Of a DNA stretch of 64,000 nt, positions 15,022 through 20,793 are shown in pieces. Below the pieces are notes generated by a model, which did no database searches, had not been told where the DNA came from, and saw only the letters and a list, made by a program, of their open reading frames with translations. Within the stretch, counting starts at the first letter, position 1. Every line of letters starts with the position of its first letter. A program made the position numbers and the translations under genes. Source of the stretch: an uncultured Candidatus Saccharibacteria bacterium (GTDB taxonomy: Bacteria > Patescibacteriota > Dojkabacteria > J137); NCBI GenBank assembly GCA_964561155.1, contig CAZLOI010000001.1, positions 3,958 through 67,957 of the forward strand, written 5' to 3'.

Positions 15022-16266
15022 TTACTTCTTTGGTTTTGCATTTACACTTTGGTTCACTAGCAACGCTACTATCATTCCTGAAAGTACAGCAGAAACTACT
15101 CCAACAATATCGTATATTACCCAATTCTTTGATAGAGGTCCTAGGACAATCACTATTGCAAGTAAAGCTATGAATAGGTTTCTAAGTAGGTTCTTTGTAT
15201 ACCACTTACCTTTATAGAACATGTAAATTAGGAATACTCCCAAAGATATTAATACTATCATTGAAATAAATGTTGCAGTGGATAGAACAGCTGATGAAAG
15301 TTTAAGCAAACTTATTGTTGTTAGTACAAATAATACAGCAATTAACAATTGTCTCTTTCCAAGTATCTTTCTATTAATCCAATACAATACTCCTGTTACT
15401 ATCAACACAACTGCTGCTCCAAAGATAAATTGAGAAGCCAAACTATTTAACGGGAAATTTACAGGTAGCTCAACAACGTTTTCATCTATTGTAAATGCAT
15501 ATTCACTAGCTATACTTTCTGTAAAGTATGCTTTAACAATTGATAATGATCTAATTGTATTAACGTTTTGTGATACTGGTACCAATCTGAATGTTGTTTC
15601 TGGGTCACTTGTGAACTGTGTCTTTGCAACAAAGAATGCTTGTGCTCCATCGATATTCATGTAGAAATATCCTTGAGCAATGTTTCCTGACATTGCTGTT
15701 GTTAATTGAGGAAGTCTTTCAGTTCTAAATGATACAACCAAGTGATTTCCTAATGCAGGTAGGTATGTTTGTGTAACAGCACCAACGATATCGTAATCGA
15801 ACACATCAACTGGTGTTGTTCCATCTTGTCCAAAGAACTCGAACTTTGCTGCAGCTACCAACTGCTTTGTTAGTTCTGGAATCTCTTGATAGTATTTAGG
15901 ATATTCAAAAACAATTGATTCTGAATCTCTATAAATATTTACATCGTATAATCCAGATACCAATGCTCTATTTTGAAATCTAACCAATCCATCTGCAATA
16001 ACTGCTTCCTTTTGTTCCTCTGTTAATTCTTTTTCACCAAAGTCTGGTGTTGTCTTTAGTTGATATGATGGATAAAGACCCTTGCCCTCTCTTATATTTC
16101 CAATTGTAGAACCTGAATACAATAAGTTTCCATCAATTTCTGGATACTTAATTGAGTTCTCTCCAATCTTTACTGTGAATGATGGGATAACAAAAAGTAG
16201 AAGGATTGTATTGATTAATAGAAGAAGGAATACGCTGAATTTAATTTTCTTTATTTTACTAAACAT
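15022..16266 (-). CDS. hypothetical membrane protein (N-terminal signal anchor, about 260-aa extracytoplasmic domain, 4 C-terminal TM helices)
   Basis: 414 aa. N-terminal FSVFLLLLINTILLLFVIPSF and a C-terminal hydrophobic block FIFGAAVVLIVTGVLYW...LIAVLFVLTTISLL...FISMIVLISLGVFLIYMF...LFIALLAIVIVLG. Confidence 0.4.
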   Translation of the reverse strand: MFSKIKKIKFSVFLLLLINTILLLFVIPSFTVKIGENSIKYPEIDGNLLYSGSTIGNIREGKGLYPSYQLKTTPDFGEKELTEEQKEAVIADGLVRFQNRALVSGLYDVNIYRDSESIVFEYPKYYQEIPELTKQLVAAAKFEFFGQDGTTPVDVFDYDIVGAVTQTYLPALGNHLVVSFRTERLPQLTTAMSGNIAQGYFYMNIDGAQAFFVAKTQFTSDPETTFRLVPVSQNVNTIRSLSIVKAYFTESIASEYAFTIDENVVELPVNFPLNSLASQFIFGAAVVLIVTGVLYWINRKILGKRQLLIAVLFVLTTISLLKLSSAVLSTATFISMIVLISLGVFLIYMFYKGKWYTKNLLRNLFIALLAIVIVLGPLSKNWVIYDIVGVVSAVLSGMIVALLVNQSVNAKPKK

Positions 16267-16326: not shown

Positions 16327-16593
16327 ATGGACGATGGAACACAAAACACTAATTCAAATTCAGATACTATAACTAGACTTCAAAATTTAGCGAGAGTAAG
16401 TAGATTTCTTGCAACTCAGATAAATGACTCAACTGAAGAATCCGATTACTTTATAGCAAAGCAATCATTAAAGGATTTCTCAGCTGAACTATTAGGTCTT
16501 CCTCTAGAACCGCAACTCAAAGAAGATATGCGATTGTTTGTAGAATTCTTAAACACATCGCTTGAGAATAAGTACAAATTACATAGAGGATAG
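16327..16593 (+). CDS. hypothetical small protein (88 aa)
   Basis: ORF only. Its 3' end overlaps the convergent Fic-like gene by 15 nt. Confidence 0.2.
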   Translation: MDDGTQNTNSNSDTITRLQNLARVSRFLATQINDSTEESDYFIAKQSLKDFSAELLGLPLEPQLKEDMRLFVEFLNTSLENKYKLHRG

Positions 16594-17619
16594 TCGATAT
16601 TTCGTTCCTCTACCCTGTCCTTCTATCTTTAGAAGATTCTTGTCTACTAGGTCGTTTAGATCTCTAAATGCAGTCATTGTTGAAACATCCATCATATGAC
16701 AATAGTCTTCTCTCTTTATCGAAGGTACTGTTTGTAGATACCTTAGAACCTTTAACTGTCTTGGGTTTAGATCCAAGAAAGGTTGTTTTTTAGATTTCTC
16801 ATCTTCCATTAACAATTCAGATACTGATTCTTTGATATCAAGTAAGTCCTTATTTATGGTATCTAGAAACACTTCTACAAAAGGAGCCATATCGTTACTG
16901 TTTCTTGAAACTCGTAAGCCTTCGATGAATCTTGAGAAATTCGAATACAGGTTCTTTGCAAAAGATGTATATGTCCTTAATGAAAGTCCAGATTTGTATA
17001 GAAGATAATCTATCATTGCGATAGTGGTTACCTTGTTGCCGTAATTGTATGGTGAAATATCAAGAAGCTTATAGAACAAAACTGCAGCTCTTATAAGTGG
17101 TGTTACTGTTGTTGTTGAATTATTGTACCAATCAATCAACTTGCTTAACTCTATTTCAGGTTGTGCGATTTCTTTATTCTTTAGTTCATACCAATCATCA
17201 TACTTGTCAGGAGTATTGTCTGAATATACAGATCTGAAGTTAAGATCATCAAGACTATATATTCCGTTATTCAACATCTTGTTAACTTGCAACAAAATTG
17301 GGGTATCTACTTCTGCATATCCATCTACGGAAGTTGAATGAGTAAATTCTTTTACGATCTTAAAGTTCTTAAGTAGCTGTGCTCTCTCGTCTTTAATCTC
17401 TACTTGTGTTGCTGTAACGATTTTTTCTGCATCTTTTAAATCTATTTCTAAACCTAAGAGCAAAGAAAGATAGAATATATCGTTTGATTTTGCACTCAAT
17501 TGAAGCTTTGATTTAACTCCATTTGAAAGCTCAAGTAGCTGTACAGCAGTTTTATTTGCTTCTATCTTAACTAATCTTGTTACGATTCTGTCGTTGTATG
17601 TAAATTTTGGTTCTAGCAT
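16579..17619 (-). CDS. Fic/DOC family protein with degenerate active-site motif and C-terminal winged-helix domain
   Basis: 346 aa. The C-terminal LNPRQLKVLRYLQTVPSIKREDYCHMMDVSTMTAFRDLNDLVDKNLLKIEGQGRGTKYRL is the typical Fic C-terminal wHTH. The Fic core aligns LIRAAVLFYKLLDISPYNYGNKVTTIAM to consensus ikAalaHyqFeaIHPFxDGNGRvgRlL. The canonical HPFx[D/E]GNGR is therefore SPYNYGNKV (residues 189-197, nt 17029-17055), with H, F, D, second G and R all substituted. Confidence 0.65.
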   Translation of the reverse strand: MLEPKFTYNDRIVTRLVKIEANKTAVQLLELSNGVKSKLQLSAKSNDIFYLSLLLGLEIDLKDAEKIVTATQVEIKDERAQLLKNFKIVKEFTHSTSVDGYAEVDTPILLQVNKMLNNGIYSLDDLNFRSVYSDNTPDKYDDWYELKNKEIAQPEIELSKLIDWYNNSTTTVTPLIRAAVLFYKLLDISPYNYGNKVTTIAMIDYLLYKSGLSLRTYTSFAKNLYSNFSRFIEGLRVSRNSNDMAPFVEVFLDTINKDLLDIKESVSELLMEDEKSKKQPFLDLNPRQLKVLRYLQTVPSIKREDYCHMMDVSTMTAFRDLNDLVDKNLLKIEGQGRGTKYRLSSM

Positions 17620-17631
17620 ATCTTAATTGTA

Positions 17632-19098
17632 TCACAGGGATAATGGATGCCGTCTACACAGAGCTTCGACTTGAGCCTTCAGTAAAGAGAATTCAGAAGA
17701 TTTTGATATAGTAATTTCTTCTAATTTTTCTTGGAATTCTTTGAAGCTCTTAAACTCCAAATTCTTCACAATCCCAATCACTTTATCAACAATTTCAAAC
17801 ACTTTTCCTATCGAATCTTCCTTAAATCCTCTGGTAGTTACAAAAGGGGTTCCAAACCTGACACCGGAGGGTGACACTGGTGACCCTTTTTCAAAAGGAA
17901 CTGTGTTTTTGTTTGTAATTATTCCAATTGAAGCCAATGCCTTGGAAACTACTCTTCCAGAAATAATATCTCCTGATTTGTTTCTTTGATTTGAGAAATC
18001 TACTAATACCATGTGCTTGTCTGTTCCTCCACTCACTACTTTGTATCCTTTGTTAATAAATAATTCAGATAGTTTCTTTGCATTACTTACAACATTCTTT
18101 GCGTATGTTCTAAATTCATCTGTGCTTGCTTCGTATAAGCTTTGGAGTATACCTGCGATACTATGGTTAAAAGGACCACCTAATAACCCCGGCATGACTG
18201 ATTTATTGATTAACTCTATATACTCCTTCTTGCACATTACAACAGCTCCTCTAGGACCTCGTAGCGTCTTGTGAGTTGTAAAGGTTACAAAGTCTGCATA
18301 TGGAAAAGGAGAAGGATGAACTCCACCTGCTATCAAACCTGCCTCATGCGCCACATCTGCAAGGAAAAATACTTTCTTTGAAGTTTGTTTCTCGTATTCA
18401 TCTAGTATCTCCCTAATTCTTTTAAAGTCTGTGAATCTTGTATATGCAGTTCCTCCTGTTATTAGCATCTTTGGATTGTATGTTCTTAGGTATTCACCAA
18501 AGCTTTCATAATCTAGAAGCTGTGTTTCTTCATCAACACGATACTGTACTATGTTAAACACCTTCGAATTGAAATTTGATTTAACACTACCTCCTTTATA
18601 TATACCTGAAACTTCAAGGGTTTCAGACTCTTTTTCTGTAGTATTGTTTTGTTTATCCGAAGCTTTTGCTTCATTATTTTTTGTCTCGTTTTTTGTTTCA
18701 TTTTTTGGTGTATAGCTCCAGCCATGACTTAAATGACCTCCATCTGGAAGATACATTGAAAGAATGGTATCTCCAATATTTAGCACAGCATTATATACAA
18801 CAAGATTCGCAGTACTTCCAGAAAGTACCTGTACATTTGCGTCCCATAAATCAATCAAATCCTCAGGTAGCATTACCTGCTTAACCATTCTGATACACGC
18901 TGCTTCTAGAACATCTACATTCTCATTTCCTTCGTAGTATCTTGCTCCTACATTGCCTTCAGAATATTTATGCATGAATACAGAACCAGTTGCTTCCCGT
19001 ACTGCTTTAGATGTGAAGTTTTCAGAAGGAATAAGATTTATCGTATTCTGCTGTCTTTCTTCTTCTTTTTTGATTAGATTTTTGAGGTCATTATTCAT
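17632..19098 (-). CDS. glyA: serine hydroxymethyltransferase with about 47-aa low-complexity insertion
   Basis: 488 aa. INLIPSENFTSKAVREATGSVFMHKYSEG...GARYYEG and VTFTTHKTLRGPRG (PLP-lysine region) are diagnostic. The insertion SYTPKNETKNETKNNEAKASDKQNNTTEKESETLEVSGIYKGGSVKS lies between the HGW and NFS(K) positions (nt 18577-18717). Confidence 0.9.
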   Translation of the reverse strand: MNNDLKNLIKKEEERQQNTINLIPSENFTSKAVREATGSVFMHKYSEGNVGARYYEGNENVDVLEAACIRMVKQVMLPEDLIDLWDANVQVLSGSTANLVVYNAVLNIGDTILSMYLPDGGHLSHGWSYTPKNETKNETKNNEAKASDKQNNTTEKESETLEVSGIYKGGSVKSNFNSKVFNIVQYRVDEETQLLDYESFGEYLRTYNPKMLITGGTAYTRFTDFKRIREILDEYEKQTSKKVFFLADVAHEAGLIAGGVHPSPFPYADFVTFTTHKTLRGPRGAVVMCKKEYIELINKSVMPGLLGGPFNHSIAGILQSLYEASTDEFRTYAKNVVSNAKKLSELFINKGYKVVSGGTDKHMVLVDFSNQRNKSGDIISGRVVSKALASIGIITNKNTVPFEKGSPVSPSGVRFGTPFVTTRGFKEDSIGKVFEIVDKVIGIVKNLEFKSFKEFQEKLEEITISKSSEFSLLKAQVEALCRRHPLSL

Positions 19099-20381: not shown

Positions 20382-20793
20382 AAAAGTATTCTATAGAAGA
20401 TAGATACCAACGACAAGGAGGAAAGGTAGAAAGAAGGAATGAAAGAAAAGATATACGGAAATAATGATCTGAAATTATAATTTCTTCGCAGGAATGAAGA
20501 AACTAGTATGAAATTGATATTGTTTTTTGGTCTCGGCCGAGCTCGACTCTTTCTGGAATGTATAATGTGGTTCGCGTACATACCAACTAAACTTTTTAGG
20601 GTTTAAAGGCAACTTACTTCTTCCAAAAAGAATCAAATAGATGATACCAACCACCATATTTATATTCAATGGAAATCTGACTAGACACAGGTCTCGTGGC
20701 AGTAGAATTAATATATACCTAGAATATAACTTTATATCCCTAATATCTTTTCTGTAGCTTCTCTTTTGATCAAGATCTAAGTATAATCTTTTT

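Follow-up and report, generated by a model that had tools for sequence, protein, structure and literature searches.

A Fic-family protein conserved across Dojkabacteria has lost its predicted catalytic residues and may persist as a winged-helix DNA-binding regulator

Introduction

What does a Fic-family protein do once its catalytic motif has been replaced? The question is raised by a gene in a 64,000-nt stretch of contig CAZLOI010000001.1 (assembly GCA_964561155.1, positions 3,958 to 67,957 of the forward strand) from an uncultured bacterium of the Dojkabacteria; this whole stretch is called the window here. The gene lies on the minus strand at 16579..17619 (stop codon at 16579-16581), and its open reading frame (ORF) translates into a protein of 346 amino acids (aa). 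The original prediction, made from the DNA letters, described a Fic core followed by a C-terminal winged helix, with the catalytic motif HPFx[D/E]GNGR replaced by SPYNYGNKV (17029-17055). It proposed that the product cannot AMPylate by the canonical mechanism and may be a pseudo-enzyme, a binding scaffold or an enzyme of different chemistry. We conclude that this pseudo-Fic/winged helix-turn-helix (wHTH) protein is lineage-wide and selectively maintained and, by analogy with characterised relatives, is most likely a DNA-binding regulator.

Degenerate FIC domains are already known from the Bartonella Beps, from AvrB and from clades described by Khater and Mohanty (PMC4454073). Among open-access papers and bioRxiv preprints, phrase searches on degenerate or non-canonical FIC motifs gave mainly Bartonella Bep papers, and no paper was found there that mentions Fic together with Dojkabacteria.

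Results

Active-site residues

The minus-strand codons TCA CCA TAC AAT TAC GGC AAC AAG GTA at 17055..17029 encode S189-P-Y-N-Y-G-N-K-V197. They open a degenerate active-site loop, SPYNYGNKVTTI (aa 189-200, 17020..17055; minus strand, as are all parts of the protein given below), which aligned with HPFx(D/E)GNGRxxR. Relative to the canonical motif, the loop carries S for His, Y for Asp/Glu, K for the second Gly (G2), V for Arg and I for the second Arg; P190 and N195 are the canonical residues, and Y191 stands in place of Phe. In phmmer alignments to CbFic2 and C. elegans FIC-1, S paired with H, P with P, Y with F, N with D, Y with D, G with G, N with N, K with G and V with R. Codons and column-by-column alignment agree on the replacement as predicted, and at residue level the catalytic His, the Phe, the acidic residue, the second Gly and the Arg are all substituted. 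No other His-containing segment aligned as the true Fic motif: the 346 aa hold only two His residues, H94, which is Arg in 44 of 52 orthologues, and H308, which sits inside the wHTH.

The losses extend beyond those first noticed, to the inhibitory Glu (L55), the second motif Arg (I200), the ATP-contacting Tyr (F231) and the flap. The Fic AMP-transferase signature HxFx(D/E)GN(G/K)R is absent, with its His, acid and Arg all missing, and so are the second Arg and the Tyr: I200 stands where canonical relatives have Arg at a frequency of 1.00, and F231/I232 where they have Tyr at 0.95 and 0.87. The helix of class II cis-inhibition is present (aa 33-54 plus a loop), but its motif (S/T)xxxE(G/N) reads L-S-L-L-L-G (aa 51-56, 17452..17469), with L55 at the site of the inhibitory Glu; canonical relatives have S-T-x-I-E-G-N. 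In SoFic/EcSofic, E73, H198, R206 and Y241 are required for ATP coordination and toxicity (PMC12249575), and these residues correspond to L55, S189, V197 and F231 of the window protein.

Judged by the alignments, every residue expected to bind ATP/Mg2+ or to act in catalysis is replaced, namely the His, the acidic residue, the Gly2 of the anion hole, both Arg and the Tyr. What remains in the family is a P-F-x-x-(G/A)-N skeleton, and Lys occupies the place of the second Gly. For Bartonella Bep FIC domains it is reported that a G2 side chain precludes triphosphate binding and that PFxxGN preserves the canonical loop (PMC8401265). K196 probably fills the former phosphate-binding anion hole of the window protein, and the retained loop skeleton is the part that holds the fold together. 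The view that the protein is a pseudo-enzyme or scaffold, predicted to be incapable of canonical AMPylation, gained support from losses more extensive than those on which it was first based.

Fold and domain architecture

The Fic core and the C-terminal winged helix, both claimed at the outset, were recovered by profile, sequence and structure comparisons. Pfam PF02661 (Fic/DOC) matched aa 109-207 over profile positions 7-93 of 93 with 26.1 bits against a gathering score of 24 (E 1.6e-5); a precomputed match exists for about half of the relatives, the remainder lying below threshold. The best PADLOC model was SoFic (PDLC03963, E 3.6e-18), covering only aa 158-342. Against PDB sequences, phmmer returned 8cil (CbFic2) as the best match (2.7e-6, aa 157-343), with C. 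elegans FIC-1 also matched.

An AlphaFold2 model built on an 80-sequence family alignment had a mean predicted local distance difference test (pLDDT) score of 90.8. Foldseek matched it to 4rgl, 8cil, 7cb8, 3eqx/3zcn/3zec and 7xux in the PDB (E 5e-11 to 3e-7, probability 1.0). All of these top matches have the Fic-wHTH architecture, and the alignments to 8cil, 3eqx, 7xux and 4rgl span 350-370 columns. FICD and 8uqu, the N-terminal domain of a Bordetella Fic, were matched as well, again with probability 1.0, the latter with a target-normalised TM score of 0.79-0.81 and a root-mean-square deviation of 2.7-3.4 Å. A significant profile match and an all-helical core superimposable on solved structures place the protein in the Fido/Fic fold. 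DSSP on the model gave canonical geometry for the active-site element (helix 174-188, loop 189-194, helix 195-209).

The protein has, in one chain and within the ~350-380 aa of its type, the α1 helix, Fic core and wHTH of the SoFic-like Fic-wHTH architecture (InterPro IPR048770-type C-terminal domain). The N-terminal helical region (aa 1-100, 17320..17619) corresponds to Fic_N/DUF4172 of class II Fic proteins, with modelled helices at aa 10-27 and 33-54; the first of these is α1 and carries the near-invariant E20. The Fic core fold (aa 101-275, 16795..17319), delimited by the Pfam match and by 8uqu, is acidic (isoelectric point, pI, 4.6). It includes a remodelled flap (aa 118-150, 17170..17268), identified by aligning degenerate with canonical proteins. 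The flap keeps R129, and the canonical beta-hairpin/PP segment ('G-x-Y-R...V...PP..VP') has become an acidic loop with the family consensus DxxDxxxDxW; pLDDT is lower there, at 66-84. A linker and a DeoR-type wHTH complete the chain (aa 276-346, 16582..16794; pI 9.7), with matches to HTH_DeoR and DIP2311-like_C. The HTH_DeoR match (PF08220, aa 287-330) is borderline in the window protein, 21.1 bits against a cut-off of 21, and reaches 26-31 bits in relatives. The model has three helices (aa 286-295, 303-310 and 314-326) followed by a beta-hairpin wing (strands 330-333 and 340-343), as expected of a DeoR-type wHTH.

Family-wide loss and selection

A first homology search gave 246 matches. The best 120 of these were all full length (~347 aa) with 38-100% identity; their named members were Candidatus Dojkabacteria, and none had His at motif position 1. 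A profile search of 1.84 billion cluster representatives then yielded 72 clusters at E<1e-30. Representatives that spanned the motif and scored above ~155 bits were all degenerate in both the active-site and the inhibitory motifs. At ~154 bits and below, canonical class II Fic proteins of the same length appeared, with [ST]xxIEGN and HPFxDGNGRTAR.

We counted motif residues over all distinct proteins gathered, binned by score to the family profile. At 290 bits or more, none of 236 proteins had His at position 189 and none had the full canonical motif; from 155 to 290 bits, 7 of 138 had the His and none the full motif; below 155 bits, the His was present in 56 of 90 and the full motif in 45. 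Close homologues with an intact motif were thus absent, both among the 236 family members and among the 138 more distant ones. In the top group, P190 was found in 235 of 236 proteins, N195 in all 236 and K196 in 184, and position 55, the site of the inhibitory Glu, was L, I, F, M or V in 230, with no Glu among the residues listed. Two further subfamilies show related states. One of them, G3 (motif DKAP[LF]xxGNQ), is also degenerate and also from Dojkabacteria/WS6; the other keeps only the His (HPFxxxN.Y[ST]) and has the same uvrC/mraY synteny.

We compared alignment columns between 65 degenerate and 39 canonical cluster representatives. Columns conserved only in the canonical set include E55, G56, H113, H182, H189, D193, G194, G196, R197, R200, Y231 and Y232, and those conserved in both sets are N85, R129, P190, F191, N195 and E249. 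Conserved only in the degenerate set are E20 in α1 and many wHTH residues (R287, R303, T316, R319, D320 and others). E20 has a frequency of 0.80 in the degenerate clade, where canonical relatives have Ala at 0.31, and it is the sole residue of the Fic part that is conserved specifically in that clade.

These columns bear on whether a residual enzyme of another chemistry or substrate survives, one that would use N195, K196 and R129 with a nucleophile or base other than His. Doc, a kinase with the motif HxFx(D/N)(A/G)NKR, and AnkX, which phosphocholinates, are precedents for altered chemistry, and the (G/A)-N-K of the family, with its frequent K196, resembles the Doc motif; according to Khater and Mohanty, conserved motif variants may signal new functions (PMC4454073). 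Yet the His is needed by every characterised Fic/Doc activity (PMC4454073), position 189 is chemically unconserved in the family (A, S, Y, M, C, Q or F), and K196 gives way to Q, T, F or D in sister subfamilies. Moreover, both Arg and the metal-binding acid have become hydrophobic residues, and no new conserved polar cluster has arisen in the Fic part. The different chemistry allowed for in the original prediction thus found no support, and we regard it as very unlikely.

The gene is present in at least 52 GTDB species-representative genomes, all of them Dojkabacteria/WS6-type Patescibacteria and including complete chromosomes of 0.86-1.19 Mb, with one copy per locus. In the window (GC content 35.9%) it is the sole match to the family profile, and its start codon is backed by the N-terminus M-[YFL]-E-P-K-F, conserved in 52 orthologues. 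Databases label family members either 'Fic family protein' or 'DeoR family transcriptional regulator'. In a neighbour-joining tree made without the motif columns, 59 of 77 non-canonical representatives fell into one clade; the tree is rough and has no bootstrap support, and it fits one main ancient loss with scattered partial degenerations elsewhere. The degenerate state is ancestral to a large clade covering the class Dojkabacteria (WS6).

Ten orthologue pairs analysed by the Nei-Gojobori method gave dN (nonsynonymous divergence) of 0.02-0.2 with dS (synonymous divergence) saturated. For the close pair L042/L043 (our labels for loci), dS was 0.15 (0.09-0.18 across the N-terminal, core and wHTH segments) and dN was 0 in each of the three segments. 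Purifying selection is strong over the whole protein. A decaying pseudogene, that is, a normal Fic copy inactivated recently, would account for the degenerate motif and for nothing further. It is contradicted by intact full-length ORFs in >370 distinct relatives sharing the degenerate state, by dN far below dS and by a fold predicted with high confidence; the dN/dS estimates and the family-wide motif counts refute it, leaving it virtually no chance. Because the loss is common to hundreds of relatives and purifying selection on them is strong, we conclude that the protein is a working non-enzyme.

The winged helix and DNA binding

Conservation is concentrated in the wHTH. The mean frequency of the majority residue is 0.81 there, against 0.52 and 0.48 in the other two regions, the Fic part being the least conserved at 0.48. 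Five basic residues of the wHTH are invariant and five more nearly so; its invariant residues include R287, K290, R303, R319, D320, G334, R337 and Y341. A nucleotide-level constraint behind this invariance was considered and rejected, since dS is no lower in the wHTH segment than in the rest of the gene; the conservation therefore reflects constraint on the protein and not on DNA or RNA.

The nearest canonical relatives are the class II Fic-wHTH proteins SoFic, CccR and CbFic2; in these three, the studied proteins of this architecture, DNA is bound by the wHTH and α1 mediates dimerisation. CccR represses its own promoter at palindromes through its wHTH, as an α1-mediated dimer, and the repression does not depend on AMPylation (PMC9755527). 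CbFic2 binds DNA and undergoes DNA-induced dimerisation (PMC10628234), and SoFic binds the 100 bp directly preceding its own gene as a dimer and not as a monomer (bioRxiv 10.64898/2026.07.09.737422). In EcSofic, the α1 residue E23 forms an inter-subunit salt bridge (PMC12249575). By analogy with SoFic, CccR and CbFic2, α1 would be the dimerisation helix of the pseudo-Fic protein too.

We favour, with somewhat better than even confidence, the explanation that the protein is a dead-enzyme descendant of class II Fic proteins of the SoFic/CccR/CbFic2 kind and survives as a dimeric wHTH DNA-binding regulator. Its ancestor would have had an N-terminal dimerisation helix and an inhibitory helix, a Fic core and a C-terminal wHTH. 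AMPylation appears to have been lost altogether, and the protein would act through the surviving half of an ancestral dual role, as a transcriptional regulator or another DNA-associated factor. In such a mechanism a homodimer would be held together by α1, two basic wHTH domains would contact DNA, and the Fic body may serve as a rigid scaffold for dimerisation and spacing. That the dimeric DNA-binding half is what was retained is argued from the wHTH, which is the most tightly constrained part, is basic and binds DNA in three proteins of the same architecture.

Several observations weigh against this explanation. Within EcSofic, the C-terminal domain additionally contacts and regulates the enzyme domain of the same chain (PMC12249575), so a conserved wHTH is in itself no proof of DNA binding. 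It is also unusual for the wHTH of an ordinary local repressor to stay near-invariant throughout a class, which could point instead to a conserved protein or RNA partner. The occlusion of the nucleotide pocket is read from sequence. In the window, the pseudo-Fic gene begins only 12 nt after glyA, which leaves it without a separate promoter region. Scans for inverted repeats, palindromes and promoters around the window operon and the neighbouring intergenic regions stayed at chance level and gave no operator. A dyad and k-mer enrichment search over the 120 nt upstream of 44 orthologues gave, after masking, TWCGTAW, ~7-fold enriched upstream of the gene in 13 of 47 loci; these 13 are related to one another, and neither the motif nor its longer pattern occurs in the window. 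The signal initially enriched in that search was tRNA-Thr gene sequence and was discarded as an operator candidate.

Upstream regions of orthologues have further features. In many orthologues the ATG is preceded at 6-12 nt by a TATAAT-like box, with no Shine-Dalgarno sequence (for example L026 5967-6000, L036 2888-2962 and L041), a pattern suggestive of leaderless transcription in these Dojkabacteria. A conserved TTGACA-N17-TATTAT promoter followed by TTTCGTATCA is shared by a related group of loci. As a separate observation, P0240, a protein of 2918 aa from the representative library and outside the window, has four wHTH copies matching the family wHTH (97 bits) together with Schlafen/AlbA_2 and HATPase_c_4; the same type of wHTH is therefore also repeated in a very different architecture.

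Gene neighbourhood

Immediately upstream and on the same strand is glyA, the serine hydroxymethyltransferase gene (17632..19098, minus strand; Pfam SHMT, E 3e-127), separated from the pseudo-Fic gene by 12 nt. The two genes adjoin, with glyA upstream, in the window and in L001-L005, L024 and L038; across the 51 loci this adjacency occurs only 7 times. A 12-nt spacer is shared by the window, L001, L002 and L024, and the junction sequence is the same in L001 and L002. glyA is a probable co-transcription partner in the sub-clade of the window only. A low-complexity insertion of ~40 aa (KNETKNETKNNEAKASDKQNNTTEKESETLE...) splits the Pfam SHMT match of the glyA product (17632-19098) into two stretches.

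Downstream on the same strand lies a gene for a 414-aa membrane protein with 1+5 transmembrane helices (15022..16266, minus strand). Homologues found by jackhmmer over the locus ORFs are neighbours in 17 of 51 loci, with a gap to the pseudo-Fic gene of 6-42 nt in 8 of these 17. The protein had no match in Pfam, PDB or PADLOC, and a single-sequence AlphaFold2 model was unusable (pLDDT 41). In other loci a second membrane protein of ~313 aa often follows (for example L013 2441-3379), and the window has the first gene only. Both proteins of the pair combine one N-terminal transmembrane helix with a large extracytoplasmic domain and end in a helix bundle, a SecD/SecF-like topology.

In about half of the loci (~24), a convergent uvrC and then mraY lie downstream. 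In ~35 of 50 Dojkabacteria loci (L006-L049), the pseudo-Fic gene is preceded at a distance of 18-250 nt by a tRNA-Thr(CGT) gene, which may be on either strand (for example L040 5904-5976 and L010 5807-5881); the window has glyA in that position instead. In several loci the tRNA-Thr 3' end is only 18-45 nt from the pseudo-Fic ATG, which suggests co-transcription. No conserved operon partner emerged from the neighbourhood, housekeeping neighbours changing between sub-clades.

Translation-related neighbours bear on a non-catalytic protein binder, in which the pseudo-Fic body would dock an ancestral target such as EF-Tu and regulate or sequester it unmodified, the wHTH being an intramolecular or partner-binding domain. 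EF-Tu is a target of Doc. It is also a target of SoFic (bioRxiv 10.64898/2026.07.09.737422), and BepC, a non-canonical FIC protein, binds and relocalises GEF-H1 with no enzymatic activity detected (PMC8401265). The contact between the C-terminal and enzyme domains of EcSofic (PMC12249575) fits this role of the wHTH. Neighbours are often tRNA or translation genes: besides tRNA-Thr(CGT), pth and a TrmA-like gene occur next to the pseudo-Fic gene, and the G3 subfamily gene lies directly upstream of gatB-gatC or of the CCA-adding enzyme gene. This signal may be due to chance, because any reduced genome of the candidate phyla radiation (CPR) is rich in translation genes, and the neighbours differ between subfamilies. 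Further against a binder, the target-docking flap has become an acidic loop, and the Fic part is the least conserved region, with no clade-specific conserved surface residue save E20. We consider a binder unlikely.

A convergent ORF of 88 aa (16327..16593, plus strand) overlaps the 3' end of the pseudo-Fic gene by 15 nt. It is conserved in place in the closest relatives only, namely L001 (56% identity, E 7e-26) and L003-L005 (31-35%), and is probably a real small gene because of this positional conservation; it had no Pfam, PADLOC or PHROG match. No small, adjacent, co-directional antitoxin-like partner was found in the window, nor any conserved small partner across the 51 loci. The original statement that the gene is not part of a toxin-antitoxin pair therefore held, whereas its placement among hypothetical genes did not, since glyA adjoins it upstream on the same strand. 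The missing partner carries no information, since the inhibitor of a class II Fic protein is present in cis.

The small ORF also touches on a possible role of the gene in anti-phage defence of the SoFic type, by abortive infection. SoFic is the best PADLOC model, PHROG 5978 was matched too, and a small conserved ORF adjoins the gene; EcSofic has a small downstream antitoxin, AS1 (PMC12249575). SoFic toxicity and defence, however, need the catalytic His, Arg and Tyr (PMC12249575), all absent here, and the PADLOC match is restricted to aa 158-342. The ORF is convergent and not co-directional, has 88 aa and not 47, and shows no conservation beyond the closest sub-clade. Throughout the class (at least 52 species genomes), the pseudo-Fic gene is a core gene, single-copy and in conserved synteny, and not an island gene, and no copy was found in IMG/VR viral contigs. 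A defence function is scarcely credible on these grounds.

Farther upstream, a conserved non-coding element of ~140 nt lies at 20531-20669 of the window (L001 2988-3150, L002 1256-1428), 110-125 nt upstream of prfB and between prfB and the block formed by a major facilitator superfamily (MFS) gene, glyA and the pseudo-Fic gene. Three genomes with saturated synonymous sites carry it in almost identical form (nhmmer E 1e-21 and 6e-29), and its indels of 1-2 nt exclude a coding sequence. It contains a 10-bp GC palindrome, CTCGGCCGAG, and on the minus strand a long conserved stem, GATTCTTTTTGGAA/TTCCAGAAAGAGTC (RNAalifold -31.7 kcal/mol). Almost no covariation was seen among the three sequences, and Rfam gave no match even at E<=1. 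The element may be a small RNA or a leader.

Discussion

The replaced motif that raised the question belongs to a degeneration that is ancient, clade-wide and complete, covering active site, inhibitor and flap, and it adds to the known bacterial pseudoenzyme families. In CPR genomes these proteins would be wrongly counted among Fic enzymes or SoFic defence genes, because the family is predicted from its residues to be unable to AMPylate. The significance of the case is moderate, limited by the precedents for degenerate Fic domains and by the fact that we infer the function.

Very few transcription factors are recognisable in this lineage, and the protein is a candidate for a conserved regulator there. 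A bolder proposal is that a toxin or defence AMPylase of the SoFic type was converted throughout the class into a core, single-copy, non-enzymatic DNA-binding factor; the near-invariant wHTH would then suggest a global-regulator or nucleoid-associated role in these ultra-small bacteria. We offer this proposal tentatively and regard it as rather doubtful. If it is true, adjacency to tRNA-Thr(CGU), gatCAB or the CCA-adding enzyme gene would hint at control of translation-related genes. The protein can also be seen as a natural separation-of-function version of the dual-role CccR/SoFic proteins, and as such it could show what the wHTH half does alone.

Comparison with known systems

Among characterised proteins, SoFic/EcSofic (Shewanella SO_4266, PDB 3eqx/3zcn) resembles the pseudo-Fic protein in its three-part architecture and length (Foldseek E 4e-8), at a sequence identity of ~12-13%. 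SoFic is an active, auto-inhibited and toxic AMPylase that targets EF-Tu, serves in phage defence and is accessory, whereas the pseudo-Fic protein lacks the catalytic residues and the flap and is encoded by a class-wide core gene. CbFic2 of Coxiella burnetii (8cil) is the best PDB sequence match and shares the DUF4172, Fic and wHTH domains, but its motif is the canonical HPFDDGNGRIGR, it retains the inhibitory E66, and it AMPylates and deAMPylates histone H3 (PMC10628234).

Two other systems share single features with the family. The Bartonella Bep FIC domains BepC and Bep8 likewise keep only the PFxxGN skeleton, and BepC acts by binding (PMC8401265). They differ in their FIC-OB-BID architecture, class I FicTA origin, host targets and recent diversification; most Bep FIC domains keep the His, and they have no wHTH. 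Doc of phage P1 shares the (A/G)-N-K sub-motif, with Lys for the second Gly. Unlike the pseudo-Fic protein, which has neither the His nor the Arg, Doc needs the His and has the Arg; it has no flap or wHTH and is paired with the Phd antitoxin.

The closest functional parallel may be CccR of Yersinia pseudotuberculosis (7xux), a wHTH autorepressor that dimerises through α1 and whose regulatory and toxic activities are separable (PMC9755527). CccR keeps its His192, AMPylates FtsZ, is secreted as an effector of the type VI secretion system and has known operator palindromes (PMC9755527), and in these respects it differs. By analogy, CccR would nevertheless be the best functional model for what remains in the pseudo-Fic protein.

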